Counted from the first letter of the stretch, positions 12,768 to 26,396 are shown. The stretch is 64,000 nt of DNA from a phage (OZ346222.1), one strand, 5' to 3'. Notes: generated by a model not told the origin, from the letters alone. Translations and numbers: made by a program.

Positions 12768-13215
12768 TACTGTAGAGGGAGATTTAATCTCCCTTTTTAA
12801 GAGCGGTGCTGGTCACCTGATCCACGGTTGTAACTGCTTCCACACAATGGGTAAGGGTGTAGCAAAACAGATTGCCCGTGAGTTCCCTCAAGCATTGGAA
12901 GCTGATAAAATGACTATGCACGGTTGCCTAAGTAAACTGGGCGCGTTCTCCCGCTGGGAGCACTTATCTCCGAGAGGTATTGTCTACGGAATAAATCTGT
13001 ATACTCAGTTCTACCCAGGGCCTAATGCTGAATATTTCTCAATACTGAAAGGCTTTGAGCGAGTCAATGAAGTATTTGAGGGGTCGATTTTACCATTCTA
13101 CATCCCTAAGATCGGGTGCGGCATAGGTGGTTTGAAGTGGGAACATGTAGAGGACATTATTAACCTTGCCACTTTTGATATAGATATTATCGTGGTGGAG
13201 TACAAAGAGTGTTGA
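12757..13215 (+). CDS. macrodomain protein, TARG1-like (putative ADP-ribose hydrolase)
   Basis: GDL, HGCNCFHTMGKGVAKQI and IGCGIGGLKWE segments resemble TARG1/C6orf130-type macrodomains; proposed GTG start after GAGGAG. Confidence 0.55.
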   Translation: MIIDTVEGDLISLFKSGAGHLIHGCNCFHTMGKGVAKQIAREFPQALEADKMTMHGCLSKLGAFSRWEHLSPRGIVYGINLYTQFYPGPNAEYFSILKGFERVNEVFEGSILPFYIPKIGCGIGGLKWEHVEDIINLATFDIDIIVVEYKEC

Positions 13216-13240
13216 CAGCTATATTTTAAGATGGTATAGT
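13212..13240 (+). promoter_or_regulatory. sigma70-type promoter
   Basis: TTGACA, 17-bp spacer, TATAGT. Confidence 0.5.
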
Positions 13241-13269
13241 CGCCACAACGATTAAGACAGAGGAGCACT

Positions 13270-13464
13270 ATGGAGACTAAAATCTTAATTCTAGCTGTGA
13301 TAGATACAACAGAAGGAGCCATGTTTGAATCTGCAGGAGGGTATTTCTACCTGCCCTATGGAAAAAGAACTTCCGAGCCGAGTAAAGATTCAATCCTTAA
13401 AGTGTTCCCGTGTGCTTTCTGGCTGGAGATCTTGGTAGAAGATTGCAGAGGACTAGGGAGATAA
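13270..13464 (+). CDS. hypothetical protein (64 aa)
   Basis: RBS AGAGGAG. Confidence 0.45.
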   Translation: METKILILAVIDTTEGAMFESAGGYFYLPYGKRTSEPSKDSILKVFPCAFWLEILVEDCRGLGR

Positions 13465-13466
13465 TT

Positions 13467-13661
13467 ATGAGAAACAAGAAAGAGCTTTACTCTGGTGAGT
13501 GGATAAACGATCAACAGGTAGGAGAGGTAACCTGCTTCCGGTGCTTTACTAGGTACAATCTTAAAACTGCACCAAAAAGTGTTCCAAAGACTGACGGTTA
13601 TTACATAAAAGAACCTCATTGCCCAAAATGCAAATGCCGATTATACTGGAGTAACCTGTAA
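13467..13661 (+). CDS. zinc-ribbon protein (64 aa)
   Basis: CFRC ... CPKCKC cysteine pairs; ATG after GGGAGATAA. Confidence 0.45.
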   Translation: MRNKKELYSGEWINDQQVGEVTCFRCFTRYNLKTAPKSVPKTDGYYIKEPHCPKCKCRLYWSNL

Positions 13662-13665
13662 AAGA

Positions 13666-13693
13666 TTGACATCTGAAAACTGCGGTGTATAAT
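13666..13693 (+). promoter_or_regulatory. sigma70-type promoter
   Basis: TTGACA, 16-bp spacer, TATAAT. Confidence 0.55.
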
Positions 13694-13724
13694 ATAAACA
13701 TAAACTAGCAGAGAGTGATATATT

Positions 13725-13916
13725 ATGGTAATTTTTAATCGAGACGGTATCATAGTTAGACAGCACCCATTCCTTGAATACTATCAAATTGAGCAATGGT
13801 GCTACGGGGATTGCAGTCACTCCTATGGGCAAAGTTGGGGATATCGCACAGTTTTTGAATCAACAGATCTTGATAAGGTAAGACAGAAAGTTTTAGAACT
13901 TATTAACAACAAGTGA
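13725..13916 (+). CDS. hypothetical protein (63 aa)
   Basis: Downstream of promoter. Confidence 0.4.
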   Translation: MVIFNRDGIIVRQHPFLEYYQIEQWCYGDCSHSYGQSWGYRTVFESTDLDKVRQKVLELINNK

Positions 13917-13923
13917 GTATGAT

Positions 13924-14259
13924 ATGGTAACATTAGAAAGACGTAAAGCTATCGCCGCCACACTGGCAGACATCTTTTGGGAGTGCAATTTAAAAGATAC
14001 CCGATATTGTGGCGCATCTGTAGATGCATTATTCCCACGGCCCACTATTGTTGCAATGGGAAACCTGTCAAACGTGGTGTATGGAGCATGGGACAAAGAA
14101 GGTGGATTTTATATCTGGCAACCTGACTACGGGACCTGGAAAGAGGTAAGGGGTGCGGATGACTTTGGGCCTGCAGTTGCCAAAACGATGGATGGCTGGA
14201 AAATCTATGTCGGTAACGACATGAAGCTGAAAGGCGAGATTGTTTACTGGTTACCTTAA
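13924..14259 (+). CDS. hypothetical protein (111 aa)
   Basis: In gene array. Confidence 0.45.
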   Translation: MVTLERRKAIAATLADIFWECNLKDTRYCGASVDALFPRPTIVAMGNLSNVVYGAWDKEGGFYIWQPDYGTWKEVRGADDFGPAVAKTMDGWKIYVGNDMKLKGEIVYWLP

Positions 14260-14280
14260 TAAAACGCAGGAGATAAAGTT

Positions 14281-14526
14281 ATGAACAAAGGGTGGACATT
14301 TGTAGACGGCGTTAAAAACATGCCTCTAGGAAAGTATATTGTAGCCATGGCAGATGAGAATGGCAAGGTGGATTTCGGAGTTTGCGAGGTTGTTCTTGCA
14401 GGATCTGGTGACTATGCTCACAAAACTGGGATAATTAACGGTCATTTCTACTTTGATTACAACCCTGTTGTGGCGTATATGGCTATGCCAGAGTTCGAGC
14501 TCCCAAAGGAGGGTGCGGATGTTTAA
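14281..14526 (+). CDS. hypothetical protein (81 aa)
   Basis: RBS GCAGGAGA. Confidence 0.45.
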   Translation: MNKGWTFVDGVKNMPLGKYIVAMADENGKVDFGVCEVVLAGSGDYAHKTGIINGHFYFDYNPVVAYMAMPEFELPKEGADV

Positions 14527-14716
14527 GCTTAAATCTGCATGGAACATCGCTGTGGGGGACGAGATCCGCATCCCAGGTGGAAAGACCATTATGAAGATAT
14601 CTCGTATCGAGTACGAAGGTGATCGTGTATTTCATATCTTTGCAGAAGATGGTCGAGAAATTTATATACAGGCAGGCTCTCACATCTATATTCGTAAGAA
14701 AGGGGACGACAAATGA
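14519..14716 (+). CDS. hypothetical protein (65 aa)
   Basis: ATG after GGAGGGTG; overlaps upstream stop. Confidence 0.4.
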   Translation: MFKLKSAWNIAVGDEIRIPGGKTIMKISRIEYEGDRVFHIFAEDGREIYIQAGSHIYIRKKGDDK

Positions 14717-15042
14717 CAGAGATCATCATTTCAACTGCAGGGTATGTGTTCCTGACAATCATTGCACTGACCATTCTGGTGGTGGTATATGGAATTGTTA
14801 TTCTCCCTATTCTTGAGACAATTAGTTTGTGTCGGTGTTGGAGAAAGGCTTACGGTCCACAGCCGTGGAAGGACTGGCCCCACCTGGTGCACATAGCGTT
14901 CTCTTATGCTTATGATCACGCCAGCAGTGCATGCATAACCGGGTATCACGCCCACAACTGGAGCTGGGAAGGGTTGAGGAAATGGAATGTTACAAAGACC
15001 ATACCTCTGCGCATGTACAAACCTAAAAACAAAGACAGCTGA
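14713..15042 (+). CDS. membrane protein (109 aa)
   Basis: N-terminal hydrophobic segments; ATGA overlap. Confidence 0.45.
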   Translation: MTEIIISTAGYVFLTIIALTILVVVYGIVILPILETISLCRCWRKAYGPQPWKDWPHLVHIAFSYAYDHASSACITGYHAHNWSWEGLRKWNVTKTIPLRMYKPKNKDS

Positions 15043-15071
15043 TACTTGAAAATCCCTGGCATATCAAGTGT

Positions 15072-15110
15072 AAGGAGGATTTCTAAAATGGATTTCCTCC
15101 TTTTGATATT
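15072..15110 (+). terminator. rho-independent terminator
   Basis: AAGGAGGA ... TCCTCCTT hairpin followed by T-rich run. Confidence 0.5.
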
Positions 15111-15355
15111 TCACCGGGCCAGATATTTTAAAATTCTTAGAAAATCAGAAAATGGATCGAAAACTAAAATGGATTTTTCAAGACAGGCACGATAAGATGT
15201 GCTGCTCATTCTATCGTTCGCACCGTACTTTAAGTCACTATTCCAGATTTTTCCGCACATACTCTCACCCTTCTACCAGAACTTTCCCAGCTTACCTCTG
15301 ACCTTTTATAACAATAAGTCCATTATTATCAGAAAGTTTCGGCACATCTCTTTCG

Positions 15356-15550
15356 GTACTCGATCTGTTTTTCATTTCAAAGACCTGATTTTCTGAAAAT
15401 TTTTCTCGATAAATTTCTTAGTACTCGATCTGTTTTTCATTTCAAAGACCTGATTTTCTGAAAATTTTTCTCGATAAATTTCTTAGTACTCGATCTGTTT
15501 TTCGTTTTCTGAATCGGATTTTCTGGAAATCGTTCCAGCTCTCGACCTGA
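15356..15550 (+). repeat. tandem direct repeat, about 65-bp unit, 2 perfect copies plus 1 degenerate
   Basis: GTACTCGATCTGTTTTTCATTTCAAAGACCTGATTTTCTGAAAATTTTTCTCGATAAATTTCTTA repeated head-to-tail; within a 1.1-kb ORF-poor island. Confidence 0.8.
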
Positions 15551-15744
15551 AATTTTTGGGGACGAAATCGATTTTTCGTTTTCAGAAATGGATTTTTAAA
15601 ATTTCTATATGGGAATATTTTATGGGATACTGTTTTATAGGAAATTGTTACGGAGGGTAATTAGCATGCTAATTAAATTTATTAAATGCGAGGAGTTCTC
15701 ATTTAGAATTTTGAATGATAATCATTCTCGTTTGCAGAATAACG

Positions 15745-15915
15745 GGCAGGCCCGGTGATTGTCTCCCGGCCCCTACTGCCCCGGCTTGTTATTATAGTAT
15801 CACACAGGACAAAGAAAGCAAGGATTTTTTGCATAAATTTTTAAATGATAATGATAACCGTTCTCATTTTATGCAGCGCCCATCCCCGGTGGTTGTCTCC
15901 CCCGTCACCGGTGCC
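15745..15915 (+). repeat. GC-rich dispersed repeat pair (GGCAGGCCnGGTGATTGTCTCCC-like)
   Basis: Two related copies about 150 bp apart, each preceded by GATAAT ... TGCAG; inverted copy at 25520-25545. Confidence 0.5.
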
Positions 15916-16123
15916 TGCCGTCCTTTCGATAGGTATATCGTGCCACCTGGCGGGGCCGCTGTCAACACTTTTCAAAAAATTTTTCTAACCTGATGCGCTA
16001 ACCGCTGCAACCTGGCGGGGTCAGCCTGGCAGGACCTAACTGACCGGGTAGGAGAGAATGAAGGCTTGTAAACCTGGTGGGCCTATGCTACAGGATAGGT
16101 AACAATTGAAGAGGAGGTACAAA

Positions 16124-16297
16124 AATGAAAGGTAATATGATCCCCCTAGAAAATGTAGCTATTAATGACGCTGAGGCTATCGCCCTGGTTGAAAAGGCTA
16201 TGGCGGGAGCGTTGGAACATAAAGAAGAGTACGAAAAATGGTGGTTAACCTGGCGGGGGCGGCAGGTGGATTCTATCATAAAAATAATTTAAAATAG
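16124..16297 (+). CDS. hypothetical small protein (about 57 aa)
   Basis: ATG 5 nt after GAGGAGGT; below ORF-track threshold; hand translated. Confidence 0.35.
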
Positions 16298-16300
16298 TCG

Positions 16301-16328
16301 TTGACAACAAGGTTAATCATGGTATTAT
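16301..16328 (+). promoter_or_regulatory. sigma70-type promoter
   Basis: TTGACA, 16-bp spacer, TATTAT. Confidence 0.5.
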
Positions 16329-16378
16329 TACCCTACAAGGTGAACAACACCGCACTAACCAGTAAAGAGGATAAATTT

Positions 16379-16576
16379 ATGAACGCATACGGGATCAAAG
16401 TACGTCGCAACACTCGCCAGGTGGTCACCAATCAAGTGATTTGCCGGGTGGATGTAACCATCAACAACGGGCAAGGCCTTTATAAATTTCGTCGCGGTCA
16501 TAGCTATACCCTGCAACAGCTTAATCGTTGCGCCCTGACAAAAGGTCAGATCAACCATTGGTTTAATAAAAAATAA
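16379..16576 (+). CDS. hypothetical protein (65 aa)
   Basis: ATG after GAGGATAAA; ORF-track start at 16301 coincides with the -35. Confidence 0.45.
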   Translation: MNAYGIKVRRNTRQVVTNQVICRVDVTINNGQGLYKFRRGHSYTLQQLNRCALTKGQINHWFNKK

Positions 16577-16579
16577 GTA

Positions 16580-16608
16580 TTGACATACAGTCCGACACCA
16601 AATACACT
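16580..16608 (+). promoter_or_regulatory. sigma70-type promoter
   Basis: TTGACA, 17-bp spacer, TACACT. Confidence 0.5.
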
Positions 16609-16640
16609 AAAAGCACAAAAGACACTAAGAGGATAAAATC

Positions 16641-17039
16641 ATGAAAACCACTACCTTTAATTTTGATAATGCAGACTTTTCTTTTTCTGATGTCAAGAAC
16701 TGCCGCCGTGATCGTGGATTTTACAAGGCTTATAATCTGGTGGGCCTGGACGATGACAATAATTTGCACGAAGTAGCTGAGATCCGGTATTATGCCGCCG
16801 CCAGCGGTAACACTAACTACTGCGTTTTTTGGATACACGACAACAAGAACAATAAGTACGGTTATACTGGTGGCAAGGCGAGCGGTCACGGTTACGATAA
16901 AGCTAATGCAGCACTTGAGAGCGCATTAAATGCTATGGGGATCACTGCCAACGGCTGGATCTATGAAGAAGAGTTTTTGTCGGCACTTGCTGACCACCTG
17001 GGCTATAAAAAGCACATTGTAACATGCGCCCACGAATAA
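16641..17039 (+). CDS. hypothetical protein (132 aa)
   Basis: RBS AAGAGGATAAAATC-ATG. Confidence 0.5.
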   Translation: MKTTTFNFDNADFSFSDVKNCRRDRGFYKAYNLVGLDDDNNLHEVAEIRYYAAASGNTNYCVFWIHDNKNNKYGYTGGKASGHGYDKANAALESALNAMGITANGWIYEEEFLSALADHLGYKKHIVTCAHE

Positions 17040-17045
17040 AAATTG

Positions 17046-17073
17046 TTGACACGCTGCAAAATTCAAGTAAACT
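17046..17073 (+). promoter_or_regulatory. sigma70-type promoter
   Basis: TTGACA, 16-bp spacer, TAAACT; followed by 5' leader hairpin. Confidence 0.5.
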
Positions 17074-17121
17074 AGTCACAAAAGGCGGGAATGTTTCCCG
17101 CCAACACAAAGGAAAAAGATC

Positions 17122-17526
17122 ATGAATAAGAACGTACGCCGCATCATGAACGAACTGGCAAACGATGAAAAAATTATTGACATGCATTTGATCAACATTT
17201 GCCGCCGTTGTGTAACATACAACAACCGCGCCGCAAAAGCGCGTGAGATGAACGCAAAAGGCACCTTAAAGCCATTCCAGGTGGTGGTAAAGGCCATTAA
17301 AGATGTAACTAATACGGCAAACCAGGTACAGGGGAACACCAACGAGAGTACCAATATTGATCCGGCTTACATCATGAAACGGATCCGGACCTGCAAGAAC
17401 AAAGAGCAAGTGTATAATGTCATAGACTGGTTGGATTCTATGGGCGATGTGGTGTACAATAGATTCTCGGCAGCTATTGAGATCCAGCTTGACAGGTTAG
17501 ACGGTAAAGTACTTAAAACTTACTAA
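17122..17526 (+). CDS. hypothetical protein (134 aa)
   Basis: Conserved leader/RBS ACAAAGGAAAAAGATC-ATG. Confidence 0.5.
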   Translation: MNKNVRRIMNELANDEKIIDMHLINICRRCVTYNNRAAKAREMNAKGTLKPFQVVVKAIKDVTNTANQVQGNTNESTNIDPAYIMKRIRTCKNKEQVYNVIDWLDSMGDVVYNRFSAAIEIQLDRLDGKVLKTY

Positions 17527-17533
17527 ATTTATT

Positions 17534-17572
17534 TTTAGATGGCCTTGACTCCAGGGCCATCAATAAAGTAAA
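17534..17572 (+). repeat. promoter-like stem-loop repeat element, copy 1
   Basis: GATGGCC-TTGACTCCAG-GGCCATC hairpin with TTGACT in loop and TAAA(G/T)T about 17 bp downstream; T-run precedes hairpin. Confidence 0.6.
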
Positions 17573-17606
17573 TTAATCTCAGCTAAGCGAAAAAGGGGGC
17601 TTTAAG

Positions 17607-17726
17607 ATGAGCACTACACGCCAATACACAAAGGTAACTATTATCGCCTGCGTTGTCGGTTACATCCTGGCGCAAATGTTAATGAGTAGCGCTAACAGTT
17701 TTGCAAAATTTTTCTTAAATTTTTAA
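17607..17726 (+). CDS. small membrane peptide (39 aa)
   Basis: ATG after AAAAGGGGG; hydrophobic core; below ORF-track threshold. Confidence 0.35.
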   Translation: MSTTRQYTKVTIIACVVGYILAQMLMSSANSFAKFFLNF

Positions 17727-17754
17727 TTGACAAGCTAACTTAGATTGATATACT
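17727..17754 (+). promoter_or_regulatory. sigma70-type promoter
   Basis: TTGACA, 16-bp spacer, TATACT. Confidence 0.5.
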
Positions 17755-17805
17755 TAAACACGTAAACGGGAAAACTTCCCAGAACACACAAAAGGAGAAA
17801 ACACC

Positions 17806-18147
17806 ATGACTACTATGGCCGCCGCAGAAAAAGCTATTCAGATCGCCGCACTGAAAAAACAGATCGCAGACCTTGAGAACAAGATCGATAACTTTGAAAT
17901 CGACGAGGACAAGTACGACGAAAACTATGATGAATGGTTAGACGAGATCTACGGCGAAATTATGATCGGAAACATTTCTTTTCTTCCGTCGCGTATCCTC
18001 AAGGAGCTAGATCCTATCGCTTACCGCTGCGGATTTAGCGACTACATCGACAGCCTGGATATTGAGGACGATGAAGAATACCAGGAATTACAGACAGAGT
18101 TAGAAGAAGCAAAAGAAGAGCTTGCAGAACTGGAAGAAAACGAGTAA
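17806..18147 (+). CDS. hypothetical acidic coiled-coil protein (113 aa)
   Basis: Conserved leader/RBS; Glu/Leu-rich C-terminus. Confidence 0.5.
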   Translation: MTTMAAAEKAIQIAALKKQIADLENKIDNFEIDEDKYDENYDEWLDEIYGEIMIGNISFLPSRILKELDPIAYRCGFSDYIDSLDIEDDEEYQELQTELEEAKEELAELEENE

Positions 18148-18154
18148 GATTATT

Positions 18155-18193
18155 TTTAGATGGCCTTGACTCCAGGGCCATCAATAAAGTAAA
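18155..18193 (+). repeat. promoter-like stem-loop repeat element, copy 2
   Basis: Near-identical to 17534-17572. Confidence 0.6.
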
Positions 18194-18236
18194 CTTTATA
18201 CTGTTAACACTGAACTAATGCATAGGAGTTAAAACC

Positions 18237-18482
18237 ATGGCAGCACTAATCACCAAATATTATGCCCCTACCAACACCAAAAGCGCCCGTATCATGGTAA
18301 AAGGCTTCGGACGTAAAAAGGTGTACACCTGGGATTATGCCTTAGACACGGAAGACAACTACACCAACGCGATGACCGATTTTATTAATGATCTGAACAC
18401 GCGGATCTTGACAAATTATAAAATTACCGATATTGCCTATATAGGGGAAGGCGGGATCTGTTTTGTCGGTATCGTCAAATAA
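18237..18482 (+). CDS. hypothetical protein (81 aa)
   Basis: RBS TAGGAG. Confidence 0.45.
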   Translation: MAALITKYYAPTNTKSARIMVKGFGRKKVYTWDYALDTEDNYTNAMTDFINDLNTRILTNYKITDIAYIGEGGICFVGIVK

Positions 18483-18485
18483 GCT

Positions 18486-18530
18486 GTTTTTTCGGTGGTC
18501 CTGGTAGCAGGGCCATCTATAAAGATAGTT
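18486..18530 (+). repeat. promoter-like stem-loop repeat element, divergent copy 3
   Basis: GGTCCTG ... CAGGGCC hairpin with G.U, followed by ATCTATAAAG. Confidence 0.4.
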
Positions 18531-18557
18531 TATCAATACAATGAAAGGAGAAAGTAC

Positions 18558-18911
18558 ATGATCAGCGGGGCAAGTTTTATTATTGGCGCTATTGCTACGG
18601 CTTTAATTGTAAACAAGATCCAATCTAAAAACGAAAAAGATAGCAACGCCCTTACAGAATACCCGTTTTGGGTATTCAACGACAATGAAGACTATATTAT
18701 CAAGTACAAGAATGAGAAGGGCGACCAGGTAACACCGCGACCGATCCCGGCTTACAAGATGCAAGAAACACTATACCGCCTAAAGGCTGGAGGCGCAAAA
18801 ATCGTAGACTTTTGGGGATACGATCACACAGATCAGGAAGTTATAAAGCGCCGTATCCGGGCTATTCAGGCCAATATTGAAGTTAGCAAGGGGGGAATAT
18901 ATGAAGATTAA
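18558..18911 (+). CDS. membrane-anchored protein (117 aa)
   Basis: ATG after AAAGGAGAAAG; N-terminal TM helix. Confidence 0.45.
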   Translation: MISGASFIIGAIATALIVNKIQSKNEKDSNALTEYPFWVFNDNEDYIIKYKNEKGDQVTPRPIPAYKMQETLYRLKAGGAKIVDFWGYDHTDQEVIKRRIRAIQANIEVSKGGIYED

Positions 18912-19098
18912 TTTTGAGAAGATTGTAAAGCGATCTCATGCTTCCGAAGAGCTGCCGGAACGCCGCCAGCGCAACAATAAACTGAATAAGCCAAAAAGAT
19001 TTGGGAAGATCTGGCGGAATCATTATGATCGCAAATTACCGGGCCTGCTTTTGGAACGTGAACGACAGGCGGAACGATACCGCCACAAAGGCAAATAA
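18901..19098 (+). CDS. hypothetical basic protein (65 aa)
   Basis: ATG after AAGGGGGGAA; overlaps upstream stop. Confidence 0.4.
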   Translation: MKINFEKIVKRSHASEELPERRQRNNKLNKPKRFGKIWRNHYDRKLPGLLLERERQAERYRHKGK

Positions 19099-19106
19099 CA
19101 ACCAAC

Positions 19107-19135
19107 GCCCCGCCATTGTGCGGGGCTTTTTATTT
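19107..19135 (+). terminator. rho-independent terminator
   Basis: GCCCCGC ... GCGGGGC hairpin followed by TTTTTATTT. Confidence 0.65.
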
Positions 19136-19256
19136 CTATCCTACGAATAGCGCCCCTGGTTGGCCCTGTAAGCGCCAAAAAGGCCCCACCTATGCAATCG
19201 CCCACCTTTAACCTGAAAACATCGCTTAGGGCCGTTTTATGGCGTTAAAAATATCA

Positions 19257-19307
19257 TTGACAGTGATTTTATTTAAAGCTTGACATCTTAAACAGGTTAG
19301 CTATACT
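19257..19307 (+). promoter_or_regulatory. sigma70-type promoter with tandem -35 hexamers
   Basis: TTGACA at 19257 and 19280; 16-bp spacer; TATACT. Confidence 0.5.
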
Positions 19308-19341
19308 AACCACATCAAAGAGAGAGAAAGGAGTAAACGCC

Positions 19342-19602
19342 ATGCGTAAATTAAAAAATTTTGATAAAGTTGATGTTGTCCTGAATAATTTTTACTACTG
19401 CAACAACAAGGCCATTTGGTGGCGTGATAGTTCCACCGATAAAGTCAAGGCGCGCTTTCTCCAGGGGCACTGGCAAGGCCGCCCAGTGATTAAAATCATG
19501 GGGCAATTGGTAGCGTTTAAAAATTGCCGCCGTGTTGATGACGTTGAAGAGATCTTGAATATTTTACGCCACAATAATTTAAAAAATAGTGTTGACAAGT
19601 AA
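19342..19602 (+). CDS. hypothetical protein (86 aa)
   Basis: RBS AAAGGAG. Confidence 0.5.
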   Translation: MRKLKNFDKVDVVLNNFYYCNNKAIWWRDSSTDKVKARFLQGHWQGRPVIKIMGQLVAFKNCRRVDDVEEILNILRHNNLKNSVDK

Positions 19603-19619
19603 ATCTCAATAAGTATACT
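19592..19619 (+). promoter_or_regulatory. sigma70-type promoter
   Basis: TTGACA, 16-bp spacer, TATACT; followed by GCGGGAAGTTTTCCCGC leader hairpin. Confidence 0.5.
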
Positions 19620-19676
19620 TAAGCACACAGGCGGGAAGTTTTCCCGCCACTAACAAAGAAAATAGGAGAAAATATC

Positions 19677-20300
19677 ATGACCACCGTTAACATTACCACA
19701 GGTTGCAATTTATCTTTCGACGTGCTGACCGACGAACAAAAAGAAAAAGCTGTTGAAATGGTCCGCGAAAGAGAAGAACACAGCGGGGATAACTTTTTTG
19801 CAGAAAGTGTAATTGAATACTATAAAGAATATGTTTTTCCAGAGTACGGGCTTGAAGATACCAAGGTACAGTGGTCCGGCTTTTGGTGTCAAGGCGACGG
19901 CGCATCAATTAGCGCTGAAAATGTAAACTTAGAAAAATTCTTGCGTAAGGTTAAAGCGCTTACAAAATTTCGCTCAATTAGACACTTGTTCGGCACAATG
20001 CACGATGGCGAACTATCAGCCAGCGTTGAACGTATCCCGTTTAGCCATTATCATCACGAAAACACAATAGGCGGGTGCATCGATACCAACTGGCTAGACC
20101 TGACCACCAAGCAAGAGGATAAAATTGAAGAGCTGGAAGAGCTGATCACCGAGACGGTACGGGAGCTATCCCGCAAGGTTTACGTAGACCTGGAGCAGGC
20201 CTATCTTGAACAATTCACTACCGAAAACCTGATCGGCCTTATCGAGGCCAATGATTGGCGGTTTGATGTGGATGAGTATGGCGAGATGACTTTTTCATAA
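19677..20300 (+). CDS. hypothetical protein (207 aa)
   Basis: Conserved leader/RBS. Confidence 0.5.
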   Translation: MTTVNITTGCNLSFDVLTDEQKEKAVEMVREREEHSGDNFFAESVIEYYKEYVFPEYGLEDTKVQWSGFWCQGDGASISAENVNLEKFLRKVKALTKFRSIRHLFGTMHDGELSASVERIPFSHYHHENTIGGCIDTNWLDLTTKQEDKIEELEELITETVRELSRKVYVDLEQAYLEQFTTENLIGLIEANDWRFDVDEYGEMTFS

Positions 20301-20308
20301 ATAAAGTG

Positions 20309-20336
20309 TTGCAATAACCTAAAAACCTGCTATATT
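20309..20336 (+). promoter_or_regulatory. sigma70-type promoter
   Basis: TTGCAA, 16-bp spacer, TATATT. Confidence 0.45.
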
Positions 20337-20389
20337 AAAACTCAAGGGGCAAGACGTTTGCCCCCACACAAAACAAAGAGGAAAACATC

Positions 20390-20770
20390 ATGAAAAACAC
20401 TACTAAAGCTATTGACACCGTTATGTTTAACCTGGTTACCTTTCGCGAGGATATGAAAGATCTTCCACGTGAAACAGTGTGCGATCACATTGAAAACTAT
20501 CGCAAACTAATCAAAGAGTTGCCTTTAAAACGTGACCAGTATGCGGCTAACGCCATGCTTAATGCCATGATCAAAAAGATGATTCAGTGTGATTTAACTC
20601 TGGCCTATGACTATGCGGGTGGTCGTTTTGCAGTATACAATCAGCCCGTGCCCGGTATGGGCACCACCGAAGAATTGCACGCGCTCAATCTAAAACAAGA
20701 CGTATGGGATAACATGCCCCGCGTGGTGGTGTGGGCAGAAAGCGGAAAGATTTACGGCGATAATTTTTAA
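20390..20770 (+). CDS. hypothetical protein (126 aa)
   Basis: Conserved leader hairpin plus RBS. Confidence 0.5.
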   Translation: MKNTTKAIDTVMFNLVTFREDMKDLPRETVCDHIENYRKLIKELPLKRDQYAANAMLNAMIKKMIQCDLTLAYDYAGGRFAVYNQPVPGMGTTEELHALNLKQDVWDNMPRVVVWAESGKIYGDNF

Positions 20771-20780
20771 TCAGGTAACA

Positions 20781-20806
20781 GGCGGCATATTTGCCGCCTT
20801 ATTGTT
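20781..20806 (+). terminator. rho-independent terminator
   Basis: GGCGGCA ... TGCCGCC hairpin followed by T-rich run. Confidence 0.55.
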
Positions 20807-20834
20807 AAACAGAGTTGCAAAAGAGGTACATAGA

Positions 20835-21206
20835 ATGGAATTTATTATTTTGGCTGTAGTAGTTGCCTTGTTCAACGCCTGGATCGCTGGCAAGATGGGT
20901 AGATCCGCCTTTTTATGGTTTATTATATCTATTTTCCTGGGGGTGGTTGCAACTATTGTACTTGTTATCCTTGCAATTGTTGACAAGGGGAATAATAGAA
21001 AGGGTAAAGTATTTTCAGACCTGTACGACGCTCAAACGTTTGTCAACGCCTATTATAGTGATCTTCCAGTCTCCCTACGCTGCAGCCTGGCACAACAAGT
21101 TTTCGATGAGGCTAAAACCAGAGATCAAGCCCATGAGATATGTTTAACTGAGGCGGATCGCCTATTTGAGAGGAATAGAAAATATGTGGGCCAACCGTTT
21201 AAATAA
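20835..21206 (+). CDS. membrane protein (123 aa, two predicted TM helices)
   Basis: ATG after AAAGAGG; hydrophobic N-terminal half. Confidence 0.45.
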   Translation: MEFIILAVVVALFNAWIAGKMGRSAFLWFIISIFLGVVATIVLVILAIVDKGNNRKGKVFSDLYDAQTFVNAYYSDLPVSLRCSLAQQVFDEAKTRDQAHEICLTEADRLFERNRKYVGQPFK

Positions 21207-21429
21207 TGCCACGTTAATTAATCCCTTTAGTGAAGATTTGAAGCCAGCCGCCTGGCGTGATGGATTCAATAACGAACGCTTTATTTTCAAGCCTGATCTT
21301 GAGGAATTTTATAACAATGGATCGAACAACAGCGGAGATAATTTTTCTTGGGATGTGCGTGGTGATGGTACTCCTGGGGGCCATTGTAAACCACGTCACT
21401 ACTACCAGGAGGAAAGAGGGAGACGATGA
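21184..21429 (+). CDS. hypothetical protein (81 aa)
   Basis: ATG after GAGGAA; alternative overlapping frame (21257..21442) also open. Confidence 0.3.
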   Translation: MWANRLNNATLINPFSEDLKPAAWRDGFNNERFIFKPDLEEFYNNGSNNSGDNFSWDVRGDGTPGGHCKPRHYYQEERGRR

Positions 21430-21549
21430 CAACCAAGGATAAGCCCCGTACCGATAAGGCGCGCCGGGTTATGGTATGGCTTGAGATCATCGCCCTTGAA
21501 ATATTGCTAGGCGTAGGGATGTACTTTATCGCTGTAAGTAACTAAGAGC

Positions 21550-21578
21550 GGCCCCCGATCATGGGGGCCTATCTTTTA
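21550..21578 (+). terminator. rho-independent terminator
   Basis: GGCCCCCGATCATGGGGGCC hairpin followed by TATCTTTT. Confidence 0.6.
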
Positions 21579-21599
21579 AAAAATTTTTCTTCCGGGGTG

Positions 21600-21627
21600 T
21601 TGCAATCCGGTCCGGAATGTGGATAAT
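21600..21627 (+). promoter_or_regulatory. sigma70-type promoter
   Basis: TTGCAA, 16-bp spacer, GATAAT; similar to element at 22763. Confidence 0.45.
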
Positions 21628-21683
21628 AACAATCAACGGGGAGCTAATCCCCACCACCACAAAAACCAGAAAGGAGAAACAAA

Positions 21684-21884
21684 ATGAGCAACAATATCCG
21701 CGTTATTAACTTCAAAAAAGAAGAAAAAATTGCCGTGCTGATTGACGGTCAAGAAATCTTCAAGGGCGACTATGAAGATCATCAAACGGCGATTAGTATC
21801 ACTCGCGTGATTGGTTATCATAATTTCTACCCCCAAGGCGCTGAGGCAGCAGTTAAACGAATCAAAGAGATTGTAGGCCTGTAA
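21684..21884 (+). CDS. hypothetical protein (66 aa)
   Basis: Conserved leader/RBS. Confidence 0.45.
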   Translation: MSNNIRVINFKKEEKIAVLIDGQEIFKGDYEDHQTAISITRVIGYHNFYPQGAEAAVKRIKEIVGL

Positions 21885-21891
21885 AATTTAT

Positions 21892-21931
21892 TTTTAGATG
21901 GCCTTGACTTCAGGGCCATCGATAAAGTAAA
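21892..21931 (+). repeat. promoter-like stem-loop repeat element, copy 4
   Basis: GATGGCC-TTGACTTCAG-GGCCATC; near-identical to copies 1 and 2. Confidence 0.6.
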
Positions 21932-21977
21932 TTTAAACCCTGTTAAAATACCACGCAGTTAACAAGGAGTGATAGAC

Positions 21978-22277
21978 ATGTTTATCCAGGCTAATAATCT
22001 TTATTTCTTTGATGGTCAGATCGTAGATGGTGTGGAAGTGGAGATCACCGGGTGCCCTGGCGGTCAGGCTATGACTTTTCGGAATAATGCCTTTGATGAT
22101 TCTCATATCGTTATGAGAATGGAAGTTACGAAGCTGGACGACAAGAAAACACTTATTGACTATTCTGTGAAAGATCATCCAGACTACCGCATGATCCATG
22201 GTGATTTGTGCATTGTTGACCGTGACAAGGTGGGCGGCATTGTGATCGCTATTGTGAACGATGTTTTCTCAAACTAA
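21978..22277 (+). CDS. hypothetical protein (99 aa)
   Basis: ATG 8 nt after AAGGAG. Confidence 0.45.
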   Translation: MFIQANNLYFFDGQIVDGVEVEITGCPGGQAMTFRNNAFDDSHIVMRMEVTKLDDKKTLIDYSVKDHPDYRMIHGDLCIVDRDKVGGIVIAIVNDVFSN

Positions 22278-22294
22278 TTTCAGCAGGCGATTTT

Positions 22295-22645
22295 ATGAAA
22301 GTCAAACTATATTACCTTAATGAGCTTAACCCCCTTGCCCAGGTCCGCGCCCTAGCTAATACCTTGATTTGTGAGAAATCTGTATATTGTGTTGAGCTTA
22401 ACGCCATGCGTGAACGTCTCAAAGGTGGTTACTTTGACATCCATGCTGCAATCAACGGCCTGAATATGGAATTTATACGCTTACGTAACAGCCGCCGGAA
22501 TCTGGCAAGAATGGAACAAGATCCGGCCCACCTTCGTAAGCTGGTTATTGAAAATCATCTGATGTTTAATGCCGAGGGTGATTATTACCATTTTCACCGC
22601 AAACGCTGGTACCGTGGCGGCAATACAGGCAAGAATGCAAAATAA
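22295..22645 (+). CDS. hypothetical protein (116 aa)
   Basis: In gene array; followed by hairpins. Confidence 0.45.
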   Translation: MKVKLYYLNELNPLAQVRALANTLICEKSVYCVELNAMRERLKGGYFDIHAAINGLNMEFIRLRNSRRNLARMEQDPAHLRKLVIENHLMFNAEGDYYHFHRKRWYRGGNTGKNAK

Positions 22646-22680
22646 GGCCCCTAGCAGGGCCTGCAGCAATATAATCACAT

Positions 22681-22714
22681 AAAGGCCATGCGGTTGCATG
22701 GCCTTTATTATTTT
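22681..22714 (+). terminator. rho-independent terminator
   Basis: AAGGCCATGC-GGTT-GCATGGCCTT hairpin followed by T-rich run. Confidence 0.6.
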
Positions 22715-22762
22715 GGCGTTACAACGGCATACGGGGCGCTTAAAAAATTTTTAAAGAAGTAC

Positions 22763-22790
22763 TTGCATCATTCCCGACAATATGGATAAT
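22763..22790 (+). promoter_or_regulatory. sigma70-type promoter
   Basis: TTGCAT, 16-bp spacer, GATAAT. Confidence 0.45.
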
Positions 22791-22847
22791 AAGAGTTGTC
22801 GAGGGGGAGGCCCCCAATCGTTGACCAGATAGATAGGAGTTAAAATC

Positions 22848-23132
22848 ATGGCTATTGTTACCGCTGGCGATGTAGTAGAAATGGAAGCAAAATACTTAAA
22901 AGCGGGTATGCACATCCTACGGAATGATCAAGAGCTATTATTAACGATGGTTGACTATAATCACGGCCAGGATTATCCAAGCATCGACTACTTTTTTGAG
23001 TATGTTGATGAAGAGTTGAAAGAGGATGAGGCCTATTGCGGTGAGTTCTGCAACTTCTTTTGTCCTGATGAGGTTGTAAAGGTTATTTATCAACCTGGCG
23101 TAGCTTTCCCGCTGCACGCTATCAATAAATAA
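22848..23132 (+). CDS. hypothetical protein (94 aa)
   Basis: RBS TAGGAG. Confidence 0.5.
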   Translation: MAIVTAGDVVEMEAKYLKAGMHILRNDQELLLTMVDYNHGQDYPSIDYFFEYVDEELKEDEAYCGEFCNFFCPDEVVKVIYQPGVAFPLHAINK

Positions 23133-23187
23133 ACCTGGCGGGGCCGAAAAGGCCCCCAATTATGAAAATAAAGAGAGGCAAATCATC

Positions 23188-23421
23188 ATGATGGAACAAA
23201 TTAAACGCGCCGAGGCTATTAATGGCAACGTGATCTATTTTGTCAGCAAAAACGAAAAAGGCGTACCATATGCGGCAGTAATAGTACAACCTGACGGCGA
23301 TTATTGGTTTACTGTGTACGGCGCTTATTCTTTTGGGCGTCCAGTGCATGATAAAATTTTGAAAGTAGCGAACCCTACCGGGAAGAATATCACAGCAGAA
23401 AAATTTTTTGAAAATAGTTGA
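23188..23421 (+). CDS. hypothetical protein (77 aa)
   Basis: RBS AGAGAGG. Confidence 0.45.
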   Translation: MMEQIKRAEAINGNVIYFVSKNEKGVPYAAVIVQPDGDYWFTVYGAYSFGRPVHDKILKVANPTGKNITAEKFFENS

Positions 23422-23445
23422 CATGACCATATAAGACTGTAATAT
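23418..23445 (+). promoter_or_regulatory. sigma70-type promoter
   Basis: TTGACA overlapping stop codon; 16-bp spacer; TAATAT. Confidence 0.5.
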
Positions 23446-23496
23446 ATAAATCAAAGGGGGCAACGAACCCCACCAACTACAAAGAGGATAAAAATC

Positions 23497-23676
23497 ATGG
23501 CTATTATTGCAAAGACTGAGATCATAGGCTTAGATTCTATTCTCCTCGCATATGAGGAAGCTATAGAAATGTATGTGGTTTCCTATGGTGAGTATATCCG
23601 TGAATATAAATCTATTGATCTGGCTTTTGAATGTTATATCCGCCAGGTTAATAAAGCGTACGATGATTATCGTTAA
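23497..23676 (+). CDS. hypothetical small protein (59 aa)
   Basis: Conserved leader/RBS; below ORF-track threshold. Confidence 0.4.
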   Translation: MAIIAKTEIIGLDSILLAYEEAIEMYVVSYGEYIREYKSIDLAFECYIRQVNKAYDDYR

Positions 23677-23682
23677 AATAGT

Positions 23683-23711
23683 TTGACAACAGCCATCTTA
23701 CAAAGCATAAT
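23683..23711 (+). promoter_or_regulatory. sigma70-type promoter
   Basis: TTGACA, 17-bp spacer, CATAAT. Confidence 0.5.
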
Positions 23712-23763
23712 ACATAAGGCGGTGGAATGGTCCGCCACCTGGAACAAAGAAGAGGTAAACACC

Positions 23764-24009
23764 ATGAAAAGCAATAAAGGTTATAACGGTTACAAAAACA
23801 AAACTCATTGGAATGTAAGCCTTTGGATTAATAACGATGAGTCATTGTACCGGTTGGCCCAAGGCTTTATTAACGCCAATGCTAATCGTAATGATGCGGC
23901 GCGGGATATGATGCTTTTTCTGGAGCTAACCGGACAAGATAAGACCCTGGACGGCTTCAAGTACAGCACTACGGCGATCCGTGCCGCGATGGTTGGAATG
24001 AAACACTAA
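23764..24009 (+). CDS. hypothetical protein (81 aa)
   Basis: ATG after conserved AGAGGTAAACACC leader. Confidence 0.45.
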   Translation: MKSNKGYNGYKNKTHWNVSLWINNDESLYRLAQGFINANANRNDAARDMMLFLELTGQDKTLDGFKYSTTAIRAAMVGMKH

Positions 24010-24086
24010 AAGCACATAGCTGCCTTACCCTGGGGCTGTGGTAGCGGCCCCATGAATAAGGTTACTAACAGAAGAGAATAAACACC

Positions 24087-24191
24087 ATGAAACAGAAATT
24101 AATCGATGCAGTGATCTTGGTTATTGCCCTGGGTATTGGCCTGATTGCAACCATGTCTAATATGATCTTGTCTTCCAACGGTATCGGGTGA
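24087..24191 (+). CDS. small membrane peptide (34 aa)
   Basis: ATG after AGAGAATAAACACC; single hydrophobic helix; hand translated. Confidence 0.3.
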   Translation: MKQKLIDAVILVIALGIGLIATMSNMILSSNGIG

Positions 24192-24200
24192 GGTTGGCAA

Positions 24201-24416
24201 ATGATCACTAACAAAACAGGCAAAACGGAATTTTTACGCAACTTACAGATCGGCAAGCCTGAGATCTGGTACTGCACTAAAACACCGCGTGACGAAATGA
24301 AAGACTTCACCGCCACGCTGCAACGGGTAAAGATATCTATCACGCAGAAAAAGGCCTTACTAGTGGTGGAAGGGGAGATCCCCCAAACCGTTGTTATAGT
24401 TGATCGTACAGCATAG
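24201..24416 (+). CDS. hypothetical protein (71 aa)
   Basis: RBS GGTGAGG. Confidence 0.4.
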   Translation: MITNKTGKTEFLRNLQIGKPEIWYCTKTPRDEMKDFTATLQRVKISITQKKALLVVEGEIPQTVVIVDRTA

Positions 24417-24507
24417 TTTAATTTATACAGATACCTGAAAATTAACCAACAAAGCATAAACAGGCGGTTACCGCCGCCTTAAACGTAGCAGAAAGAGGAT
24501 AGGCACA

Positions 24508-24792
24508 ATGAAAAAGATGATCGCAGTGGTTACCCTGGTTGTTGGACTTAATGCGCCTGTAATGGCTAAAGAGCTGGCAAAAGAGGTTAATCTAACGGAT
24601 ATTCATGCCGTCAATCAAATCGGGGTTACTTATCGCTTATGCCTTGCCGCTAAAACTTTTAAGGACGGCACAACAGAGTACTACGGATTCGAGGGTATCC
24701 GGTGCGGTGAGCTTGCTCGCGACCTTAAGGAAGATCCAGACCTGGAGGATCTGCCCATAACCGTGAACGGGAAAACTTACGTGAACCGTTAA
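24508..24792 (+). CDS. secreted/periplasmic protein (94 aa, N-terminal signal peptide)
   Basis: MKKMIAVVTLVVGLNAPVMA signal-like N-terminus; AGAGGATAGG RBS. Confidence 0.45.
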   Translation: MKKMIAVVTLVVGLNAPVMAKELAKEVNLTDIHAVNQIGVTYRLCLAAKTFKDGTTEYYGFEGIRCGELARDLKEDPDLEDLPITVNGKTYVNR

Positions 24793-24794
24793 CC

Positions 24795-24929
24795 ATGAGA
24801 AAGATAATTATTACCATGGGGATCGTGGCGGCAATGTTGGCGATCTTTCCCTTTATGGTTAGGTATGTGCTGATTAATGTTGTCCTGGTAGTCAGCGATC
24901 TGGTGTTATATATTAACTCATTGTTTTAG
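24795..24929 (+). CDS. small membrane peptide (44 aa)
   Basis: Hydrophobic throughout; hand translated. Confidence 0.3.
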   Translation: MRKIIITMGIVAAMLAIFPFMVRYVLINVVLVVSDLVLYINSLF

Positions 24930-24937
24930 GCGCGATA

Positions 24938-25129
24938 ATGACAGCGGAAGAAGTTAAAAAAGTACTGGCGGTACTGCGTTATCATAATCATTGCAAGGTG
25001 AAGAATGATCCTGATTATCTTGATTCATCCCTTGAAGAGGATACACTACAAGCCATAAGCAACATGCAAGAATTGCTTAAGCGTATGACAGAGAAAAACC
25101 GACCGGACTACATAGGGGGTAAAATATGA
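24938..25129 (+). CDS. hypothetical protein (63 aa)
   Basis: In gene array. Confidence 0.4.
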   Translation: MTAEEVKKVLAVLRYHNHCKVKNDPDYLDSSLEEDTLQAISNMQELLKRMTEKNRPDYIGGKI

Positions 25130-25437
25130 TCGCTATTACGCCAACCGTTTTAGATTGGTATCGGCAACGCATAGCGCCTCCGCTGGCTATCTTCAAAGAT
25201 GCGGAAGCAAAACAACGCCGGATCTCAATACATGAGATCATCAACCTTAACGCTGGAGGCACACCATACCGCCCAGGACCTGGCCGTGAGATGGACAATA
25301 CATTGGCGATCCTGAAGATACGCCGTAAACGGTCCTCCCTTACGCTGGATTCATTACACACAATGCAGTCTCCGTTCCAGGTGACTGGGAAACGGATCGC
25401 CAGGTCCTGGACAAAGGCCAATGACCGGACCGTATAA
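25126..25437 (+). CDS. hypothetical protein (103 aa)
   Basis: ATGA overlap with upstream gene. Confidence 0.4.
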   Translation: MIAITPTVLDWYRQRIAPPLAIFKDAEAKQRRISIHEIINLNAGGTPYRPGPGREMDNTLAILKIRRKRSSLTLDSLHTMQSPFQVTGKRIARSWTKANDRTV

Positions 25438-25572
25438 ATAAAAAGTGTTTTGGTACTGATTTTGGGGTTGACTTGTTCGGCCCCTTTTGCTATTCTTATT
25501 AAACGGGCGGCACTTGGGAACAGGGGGAGACAATCACCAGGCCTGCCTGTCATATAAGAACTATAAAAACCG

Positions 25573-25601
25573 TTGACATCTGCCAGGGGGTGGGGTAACA
25601 T
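25573..25601 (+). promoter_or_regulatory. sigma70-type promoter
   Basis: TTGACA, 17-bp spacer, TAACAT; followed by leader hairpin. Confidence 0.5.
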
Positions 25602-25655
25602 TTATCTTGAAGGGGCAAAGGTGCCCACACAACAACCAGAAGAGAGGAAAACACT

Positions 25656-25928
25656 ATGTCAAGCTGGATTAATCAAGAAGTCGAATCACGTTTTAATGCT
25701 ATTTGGGATCTCATCGAAAAAGAAGACGGCACATCAAGCCCCTACCTCAACAATTTGGAATTCCATTTTGTGGAAGCGATGAACGCAGAACATGATCACG
25801 AAGGTGGTGCGGACGAGTTCGCTAAAGGGTATGGCTTCAACAATGCCAACGAAATGATCGAGGCGGTTGTACTCCAGGCTGAGGAAGATTATCAATTAAA
25901 AACGCTTGAATTCTGCCGCCGCAAGTAA
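25656..25928 (+). CDS. hypothetical acidic protein (90 aa)
   Basis: Conserved leader/RBS. Confidence 0.5.
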   Translation: MSSWINQEVESRFNAIWDLIEKEDGTSSPYLNNLEFHFVEAMNAEHDHEGGADEFAKGYGFNNANEMIEAVVLQAEEDYQLKTLEFCRRK

Positions 25929-25988
25929 TAAGATAATGACACGGGCCGGGAGGCCCACTAATCAGAACCACACAAAGAGGTAAACATC

Positions 25989-26252
25989 ATGAAACGTCTT
26001 GATCAGCTTAAACTAGTTCAGTACATGGCCTACAAAGTTCTTGAAGTCCAAAAAGGTAGCAAAAAAGAGGTTTGCGAGAAAGCGTACAAGATCTTTACCC
26101 GTAAAAAAGATGATTGGATGTTACGCCAGACCAAAAAAGCCGATATCTTGGGGTACCTGGAAGAAGAGATCCGACTTGAAGAGCAAGAAGAGATCCGCCG
26201 CAGTGAGGCAGATTATCAGGCAGCCTGGGAAAACTGGATGAGCAACAAATAA
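25989..26252 (+). CDS. hypothetical protein (87 aa)
   Basis: Conserved leader/RBS. Confidence 0.5.
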   Translation: MKRLDQLKLVQYMAYKVLEVQKGSKKEVCEKAYKIFTRKKDDWMLRQTKKADILGYLEEEIRLEEQEEIRRSEADYQAAWENWMSNK

Positions 26253-26319
26253 TACAACAAGTTGCACGATCAGGGGGCAATAAAGCCCCTTGATCACATA
26301 AAAATTATGCTATCCTTGG

Positions 26320-26348: not shown

Positions 26349-26396
26349 CTTTTTGAAGGGAAGTTGTAAGAAAATTAACTAAGAGGTAAAAACACC

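Follow-up and report, generated by a model that had tools for sequence, protein, structure and literature searches.

A bipartite hairpin element at recombination junctions between early genes of rV5-like coliphages

The 64,000-nucleotide stretch of phage DNA examined here (OZ346222.1; hereafter the window) comes from an rV5-like coliphage of the genus Vequintavirus and carries four copies of a hairpin-forming element, designated A to D, all clustered inside 4.4 kb. Comparative evidence indicates that the hairpin, as read on the + strand, is the selected feature of these elements and that selection keeps its pairing. Also, the copies are recombination junctions: genes have been deleted between them, and a module has been carried into a phage of another subfamily. 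The explanation that we favor, and to which we give about as much credence as doubt, is that the four copies form a genus-specific family of composite intercistronic elements, in which an RNA hairpin that would serve as a processing signal is combined, in A, B, and D, with a promoter. Such an arrangement would be similar to the promoter-early stem-loop (PeSL) elements of certain T4-like phages.

The genomes of large virulent phages are rich in small early genes whose functions are unknown and which often take part in host takeover or anti-defense. The expression and exchange of such genes are poorly understood outside of T4 and T7. The element described here provides a concrete handle in a phage group with uses in therapy and in the biocontrol of E. 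coli O157. RNA ends and start sites at defined positions can be predicted from it, and it marks sites of cassette gain and loss (two types of deletion and one transfer between subfamilies). It also suggests that modular shuffling of the PeSL type extends beyond T4-like phages. In the rV5 genome paper, the promoters and terminators of Table S4 include no entry at the sites of the elements (PMC3606486).

Four copies of one element follow stop codons

A 24-mer, GATGGCCTTGACTYCAGGGCCATC, occurs on the + strand at 17538-17561, 18159-18182, and 21897-21920, and had no matches in 100 shuffles. A repeat finder places these occurrences in a 50-nt family of 94-100% identity that comprises elements A (17525-17574), B (18146-18195), and D (21884-21933). 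It adds a fourth, 68%-identical copy at 18481-18530, the divergent element C, which as a folded unit is delimited at 18479-18533 on the same strand. Every copy starts where a + strand open reading frame (ORF) ends, at its stop codon. The four ORFs are the 134-amino-acid gene upstream of A (17122-17526; stop codon 17524-17526), the 113-amino-acid gene upstream of B (17806-18147; 18145-18147), the 81-amino-acid gene between B and C (18237-18482; 18480-18482), and the 66-amino-acid gene upstream of D (21684-21884; 21882-21884). The stop codons lie within the T-rich 5′ arm, and the next ATG, with a Shine-Dalgarno (SD) sequence, stands 27-44 nt past the element, a feature that is shared with the PeSL layout. 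The first-pass annotation of this DNA had described four copies of a 40-bp element, three after the stops of genes and a divergent one. The copies are real, but the annotated starts lie ∼7-9 nt inside the elements, and four genes are involved rather than three.

Pairing of the hairpin on the + strand

When the + strand RNA is folded with RNAfold, the same bipartite hairpin is predicted for all four copies. It consists of a 10-bp upper stem with a tetraloop, an internal loop with 2 nt on one side and 3 nt on the other, and a lower stem of 10-13 bp formed by A·U and G·U pairs. In element A, the lower stem is 17526-17535/17565-17574, the upper stem is 17538-17547/17552-17561, and the loop, ACUC, is 17548-17551; the upper stem of element B is 18159-18168/18173-18182. 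The upper stem takes in the TTG of the promoter-like hexamer TTGACT as U·G, U-A, and G-C pairs, and the lower stem pairs the T-run with the A-rich 3′ flank, including one U·G pair. The 7-bp stem GATGGCC/GGCCATC, which had earlier been noted as enclosing TTGACT, is indeed present, but it extends to 10 bp by RNAfold with TTG paired, and the lower stem had been missed.

The minimum free energies range from −22 to −28 kcal/mol (−28.2 kcal/mol for element C, which has a 13-bp lower stem), and the corresponding z-scores are −5.2 to −7.5 on the + strand versus −2.3 to −2.9 on the − strand. Similarly, a covariance model built on the hairpin scores the elements at 74-84 bits on the + strand versus 30-44 bits on the − strand (84 versus 40 for element A). 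Searching the full 64 kb for long hairpins in two generic RNAfold scans gave no discrimination.

Conservation was evaluated with 33 copies, 25 of them distinct, from the window and nine related loci. Among the distinct copies, 99% of pair cells are paired in an alignment that had been fitted to the covariance model, compared to 34-58% in slid controls. Four lower-stem pairs have changed on both sides, and the covariation measure is 0.219, versus 0.128 in shuffles (none of 500 reaches 0.219). Furthermore, each copy includes two to five G·U pairs, and the helix is 99.0% paired on the + strand versus 85.6% on the − strand.

Copy C has only A>G, C>U, and U>C substitutions on the 5′ arm of its upper stem, each of which keeps the pairing. 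Between phages, its lower-stem pairs are swapped (C-G with U-A, and G·U with A-U and with G-C), and its loop varies freely (GUAG, GUAA, GUUG, GCUG). Also, in L002, a divergent contig, the orthologue of A has an AUAAC loop with an extra base and a 20-nt spacing between its −35 and −10 boxes, and its hairpin is intact. Because copy C keeps the hairpin yet has lost TTGAC, and given the pairing, the covariation, and the L002 orthologue, the hairpin itself is shown to be the feature under selection. The 3′ arm and the adjoining ATAAAG, which would constitute the spacer of a promoter, are invariant in all 33 copies, and a promoter alone does not explain this invariance. The lower stem and the strand-specific G·U pairing point to a role at the RNA level, and a post-transcriptional function of some kind is probable.

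Deletions and a transfer between subfamilies

The cassette between A and B (17575-18145, + strand) holds a 39-amino-acid ORF (17607-17726), a consensus promoter, TTGACA-N16-TATACT, at 17727-17754, and the 113-amino-acid gene. It is kept in 110 of the 121 phage records that carry the element. Phages ime, magaca, ECP32, and phiWec189 and one IMG/VR contig lack the cassette, and these five genomes keep a single A/B hybrid element with the left flank of A and the right flank of B. This deletion is found on two allele combinations of the flanking genes. In phage 241Ecol014PP, the 81-amino-acid gene has been deleted, leaving a B/C hybrid element with its crossover at CATCAATAAAG|ATAATTT. This hybrid (7343-7402 of L020) has two mismatches in the lower stem and contains TTGACA-N17-GATAAT, which matches 11 of 12 consensus positions. 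The deletion between B and C has thus created a near-consensus promoter before the 117-amino-acid gene.

KKE7M is a phi92-like Justusliebigvirus and belongs to a different subfamily. It is the only one of its relatives to have the segment 17726-18193 of the window (95% identity), a module made of the 17727 promoter, the 113-amino-acid gene, and one element. Comparison with the empty site in phage muut places the left crossover inside a homologous resident promoter and the right crossover in AGTAAA(C/T)T, where the −10 box of the element meets the resident −10 box (AGTAAAT|TATATTC). Crossover positions differ between events, which fits recombination by homology or microhomology and not a site-specific recombinase.

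Further short early segments are shared with KKE7M at 76-95% identity (20423-20756, 23478-23678, 23782-23838, and 24136-24414), which indicates that small early modules have been exchanged repeatedly between the two subfamilies. Another kind of loss is seen in rV5_ev146 (L011), a laboratory-evolved (“ev”) derivative of rV5 that lacks the equivalents of 17115-17619 (0.5 kb) and 19048-25532 (6.5 kb), including elements A and D. These deletions are not bounded by elements, and their junction overlaps of 14-18 nt are not element sequence. The losses imply that ∼7 kb of early genes is dispensable.

Likeness to RNase III processing sites

The early sites R0.3, R0.5, R1, R1.1, and R1.3 of phage T7, when folded with the same tool, have the same plan as the elements, stand directly after stop codons, and form a repeated family. 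Each T7 site has an upper stem of 9-10 bp, a loop of 4-5 nt, an internal loop whose 3′ side is UAU, and a lower stem of 5-8 bp. The determinants used for comparison are those defined on R1.1, with base pairs (bp) counted from the loop: a distal box of U-A and U·G, and a proximal box of G-C, A-U/U-A, A-U, and A-U/U-A (PMC1540722).

In elements A, B, and D, bp1 is G-C, and bp2 (U-A) and bp3 (U·G) reproduce the distal box exactly. The middle-box pairs bp5 and bp6 are C-G and G-C, and a G-C substitution equivalent to bp6 slightly raised cleavage of R1.1 (PMC1540722). At bp9, which is position 2 of the proximal box, the elements have A-U; G-C or C-G pairs are strongly inhibitory at this position (PMC1540722). 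Position 4 of the same box corresponds to bp11, an A×A mismatch, where native R1.1 has U·C. The elements also provide the helix spacing of ∼11 bp to the cut site, in the form of 10 bp plus the A×A mismatch, with the 2/3-nt loop and the 10-13-bp lower stem beneath. Where T7 has UAU|G on the 3′ side of the loop, the elements have AAU, UAU, or GAU and then an A.

By analogy, cleavage would fall between alignment columns 44 and 45 (CAUCNAU|AAAG), that is, at 17564/17565, 18185/18186, 18520/18521, and 21923/21924. Such a cut would lie on the 3′ side of the internal loop, so that the upper hairpin would cap the end of the upstream cistron. A function as an RNase III site is plausible, the resemblance amounting to a feature test that is partly passed rather than a proof, and actual cleavage of the elements by RNase III is a possibility that we regard as somewhat doubtful.

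Promoter features of elements A, B, and D

Elements A, B, and D contain the pattern TTGAC(T/A)-N18-TAAA(T/C)T, whose hexamers match the consensus at 9-10 of 12 positions (10 with the TTGACA variants) and are preceded by T-tracts like AAATTTATTTT that resemble UP sequences. The putative −35 and −10 boxes, all on the + strand, are TTGACT at 17545-17550 and TAAATT at 17569-17574 in A, 18166-18171 and TAAACT at 18190-18195 in B, and TTGACT at 21904-21909 and TAAATT at 21928-21933 in D. The first-pass annotation was therefore right that TTGACT is accompanied by a −10-like box, since TTGACT-N18-TAAATT/TAAACT is found in the three similar copies with a score of 9/12. Its proposal that the elements are promoters holds in part: A, B, and D are promoter-like, but the promoter is not the conserved feature, as seen from the L002 spacing and from copy C. 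Copy C has the sequence CCTGGTAG in place of TTGAC; its best promoter-like reading, CTGGTA-N17-GATAGT, matches only 7 of 12 positions, and this copy appears to have lost the promoter.

Several observations bear on promoter function in the remaining copies. The AC of TTGAC, which supplies the first two bases of the loop, is conserved in A, B, and D, where the next two bases vary (T/A and C/T), and in C all four vary, the pattern expected if a −35 box constrains A, B, and D only. Accepted consensus promoters of these phages have the 3′ part of the element, AAGTAAACT, as their −10 context. One of these is rV5 promoter P194 (TTGACA-N16-TAAACT; Table S4 of the rV5 paper), which has the AAGTAAACT context and is found at 17046-17073 on the + strand, upstream of the 134-amino-acid gene. 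Phage muut likewise has a TTGACA-N16-TAAACT promoter with an element-like −10 context, and phage UAB_1 has a genuine TTGCAA-N16-TAAACT cassette in which the spacer and −10 region consist of the identical 13-mer AATAAAGTAAACT. In KKE7M, the TAAATT of the element replaces the resident −10 box at the same 11-nt distance to the downstream hairpin in the 5′ untranslated region (UTR). The loop-base conservation, the −10 context, and the −10 replacement in KKE7M each raise the odds of a promoter in A, B, and D, and sequence features of this kind lead us to lean, by a small measure, toward promoter activity for these three copies.

A second repeated cassette is found in the same phages. It comprises a sigma70 consensus promoter (TTGACA-N16/17-TAnnnT), ∼11 nt, a GC hairpin of the form GGCGGGAA(N3-5)TTCCCGCC at the predicted mRNA 5′ end, AAAGAnGG, and ATG. 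The window holds two copies, at 17046-17116 and 19592-19662; the former is upstream of the 134-amino-acid gene, with promoter and 5′-UTR hairpin at 17046-17102. There are five or six in 13 kb of KKE7M (L021 3215-3277, 3571-3655, 6184-6268, 9894-9964, 10450-10512, and 10739-10809). These cassettes are a separate kind of promoter-plus-stem-loop unit in the PeSL sense, and their hairpins are probably 5′-end stabilizers. Also, the element 12-mer CCATCAATAAAG follows two GGCGGG hairpins in KKE7M (L021 7255-7279 and 10151-10175), where AAAGAG is the SD sequence; this occurrence may reflect shared ancestry of the 3′ part or coincidence.

The hairpins as terminators

An intrinsic terminator was considered for either strand and rejected. 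The hairpin is followed by AAUAAAGUAAAU on the + strand and by UAAAAAUAAAU on the − strand, neither of which is a U-tract, and none of the elements was listed by the terminator scan, in agreement with the earlier view that they are not canonical terminators. Genuine terminators in this phage, such as those at 19107, 21550, and 22679, consist of a GC stem with a T-run behind it, as is also seen in Table S4 for rV5. The terminator at 19107-19136 (+ strand; GCCCCGCC...GCGGGGC and then TTTTTATTT) ends the unit that holds B and C, and copy C lies inside this unit, which runs from the 17727 consensus promoter. No separate promoter is listed for the gene that follows C (18558-18911), and hairpin C must therefore be read through.

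Two other canonical terminators of the window, at 1118-1144 and 11516-11542, are 96% identical although 10.4 kb apart. They consist of GCCCTGCCCGAAAGGGTGGGGC and then a T-run, and they correspond to t232 and t213 of rV5.

Distribution and genomic setting

The first-pass annotation had named a lack of further copies elsewhere as a refuting result. A covariance model search of the 64-kb window found no copy beyond the four, and neither did a search with filters off of the 90 kb that remain in the closest complete genome, a result that tells against a general promoter class. With blastn, the element is limited to 121 phage records, usually at three places per record, and all of these are Vequintavirus except the phi92-like recombinant KKE7M. 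About 120 GenBank records have the three near-identical slots, and the rV5-like genomes and contigs that were examined keep all four slots together with their pairing. When IMG/VR and metagenomes were scanned with the invariant 17-mer, most matches were due to chance, and those that scored with the model were found only on rV5-like contigs. Rfam gave no match in 11000-30000 at E ≤ 1 save an unrelated weak one at 20322.

Over 17000-22500, the window shares 90-97% identity with more than 110 complete rV5-like genomes, and the best match is rV5_ev168 (96.8%, minus strand of that record). In rV5, the corresponding region is part of an early transcription unit that is served by host RNA polymerase and has many sigma70 promoters (PMC3606486). 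The genes around the elements are small, ORFan-rich + strand ORFs that belong only to PHROG families of unknown function. No Pfam domains were found in the small flanking genes, and no integrase was seen in the element region. No orthologous element slots were located in more distant genera; the 134-amino-acid gene is genus-restricted, and homologues of the 81-amino-acid gene occur in unrelated siphophages. A search for related loci with the 207-amino-acid neighbor yielded few useful rV5-like loci.

These siphophage homologues of the 81-amino-acid gene (PHROG 3199) share 43-47% identity with it and are found in Seuratvirus and Nonagvirus (e.g., CAjan and Skure), with weaker homologues in Pseudomonas and Klebsiella phages. 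This small gene of unknown function travels widely. Upstream of the elements, 15346-15596 contains three to four tandem 65-nt repeats, two of them identical, in a stretch without long ORFs. These repeats are possibly the “non-coding” box of the rV5 map, and it is conceivable that they are iterons or an origin. In addition, E. coli rV5-like phages match 17 GenBank records titled “Campylobacter phage” (UNVERIFIED, host C. jejuni) at 94-100% identity here, and these records are probably mislabeled or contaminant assemblies.

Weighing the explanations

According to the composite reading that we favor, RNA that reads through from upstream promoters would fold into the bipartite hairpin. The hairpin would act after transcription and not as a terminator, most likely as an RNase III-type processing and 3′-end-stabilizing signal like the T7 early R sites. 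Elements A, B, and D would also serve, as DNA, as moderate sigma70 promoters for the downstream gene, with a UP-like T-tract and an 18-bp spacer, and copy C would have lost this function. A broader proposal, which we consider less likely than not, is that the element is a dual-purpose signal in both rV5-like and phi92-like coliphages, with an RNA processing or stabilizing hairpin for the upstream gene and a DNA promoter for the downstream gene, and that it serves as a portable junction between subfamilies. It would then represent PeSL-like shuffling that evolved independently and was built on a processing site rather than a terminator.

Several points weigh against this combination of hairpin and promoter functions. 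The copies are few, closely related, and recombining, and some of the covariation (column 7/53) could reflect co-conversion rather than independent compensation. The lower stem, which joins a T-run to an A-rich −10 region, could be in part a by-product of promoter composition. Promoter matches of 9/12 quality are common (74 in 19 kb versus 43 expected), the spacer is 18 bp, and the −10 box matches at only four of six positions. Regarding processing, bp8 is U-A (proximal-box position 1, where G-C is preferred) and bp10 is G-C (position 3, where A-U is preferred), and these are not the pairs that E. coli RNase III prefers; also, the distal box of copy C is U-A and C-G, and T7 R0.5 has C-G there too. 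Transcript maps of rV5-like phages were not found in the literature searched.

If the elements were PeSLs in the strict sense, each would supply an early sigma70 promoter, and its stem-loop would terminate or attenuate upstream transcription, insulating each small gene, with no role for an RNase. The layout matches the PeSL description, the hexamers are promoter-like and share the −10 context of the promoter family, and the unit that moved into KKE7M has the order promoter, gene, and element, with the element where the terminator of a moron would be. Bacterial promoter-coupled terminators with a stem-loop over the −35 box are documented as well. However, the sequence after the hairpin is unlike that of the terminators this phage uses, efficient termination at the promoterless copy C would silence the next gene, and neither the long A·U/G·U lower stem nor the compensatory changes would be needed for termination. 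We therefore consider this account rather unlikely.

Other possibilities assign the symmetry of the element to DNA or deny it a regulatory role. The inverted repeat GATGGCC-N10-GGCCATC, a perfect 7-bp repeat over a promoter-like site in three copies, might be an operator bound over the −35 box by a dimeric phage regulator that switches early genes, and rV5-like genomes do encode an anti-sigma-like protein and a putative transcriptional regulator. Nevertheless, substitutions keep RNA pairing through G·U while breaking DNA symmetry (GGTGGTC in copy C versus GGCCATC), the symmetry extends over ∼50 nt including the A/T flanks, unlike an operator, and the half-site centers are ∼17 bp apart. The strand asymmetry in pairing also disfavors this idea, which we judge improbable. 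A slightly less probable idea still is that the copies are a selfish or neutral dispersed repeat, or a folded recombination site like attC, and thus scars of cassette exchange. There are only four copies within a short distance, three independent rearrangements end in an element, and a one-strand structure is conserved more than sequence, as in integron attC sites. Against this, the difference in crossovers noted above (CATCAATAAAG|ATAATTT and AGTAAAT|TATATTC) disfavors an attC-like site and points to homology or microhomology, the region has no visible integrase and its small flanking ORFans carry no Pfam domains, and the conservation of all four slots, with their pairing, in the genomes and contigs examined, along with the recurrence of three slots in about 120 records, argues for purifying selection.

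Comparison with known systems

PeSLs were described in the T4-like phages phi1/RB49, PST, and nt-1 (Arbiol et al. 2010, PMC2839356; Comeau et al. 2014, PMC4122927). Their layout places a stop codon within AT-rich sequence, then hexamers of the sigma70 type with a stem-loop over the −35 box, and finally an SD sequence and ATG (PMC2839356). The elements of the rV5-like phages are likewise composite intergenic cassettes among small early ORFans, with a stop codon in an AT-rich tract, sigma70-like boxes in A, B, and D, a stable stem-loop, an SD sequence, and ATG. Their stem-loop overlaps the −35 box and the spacer, as a PeSL stem-loop can overlap the −35 box, and the genes that they flank are deleted, inserted, or moved when copies recombine. 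The resemblance to PeSLs proposed in the first-pass annotation is borne out for layout and recombination behavior, but the phage is rV5-like and not T4-like, so that an analogy in the Vequintavirinae lineage, and not homology, is indicated. There are also only four copies rather than dozens. The 20-23-bp bipartite hairpin has neither a poly-G/poly-C stem nor terminator features, one copy is promoterless, and the element promoter, at 9-10/12 with an 18-bp spacer, is not a consensus one.

Like the T7 R0.3-R1.3 sites, the elements are repeated hairpins that stand right after stops in an early polycistronic mRNA made by host RNA polymerase. They share the upper stem of ∼10 bp, the 4-5-nt loop, the asymmetric internal loop with a 3′ NAU, the lower stem, the distal box (U-A, U·G) at the same base pairs, and A-U at proximal-box position 2. 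Unlike the T7 sites, to which they have no sequence homology, they have non-preferred pairs at proximal-box positions 1 and 3 and a longer, almost purely A·U lower stem. Furthermore, no T7-like kinase that would stimulate RNase III is known here, and the T7 sites are not also host promoters.

Two additional systems share parts of this arrangement. In bacterial promoter-coupled terminators (Fletcher et al., bioRxiv 10.64898/2026.08.19.745784), the stem-loop DNA coincides with the −35 box of the next promoter between tandem genes, as in the elements, although the latter have AATAAAG in place of a T-tract and carry no terminator signature. The transfer of 17726-18193 as one unit into a phi92-like genome recalls the lambdoid morons, which consist of promoter, gene, and terminator. 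Unlike in morons, the insertion occurred via homology to the resident promoter on both sides, and the 3′ element is not a terminator by sequence. Overall, the element looks like a PeSL-like cassette in layout and evolutionary behavior that belongs to an unrelated lineage, with a stem-loop that resembles a processing signal rather than a terminator.

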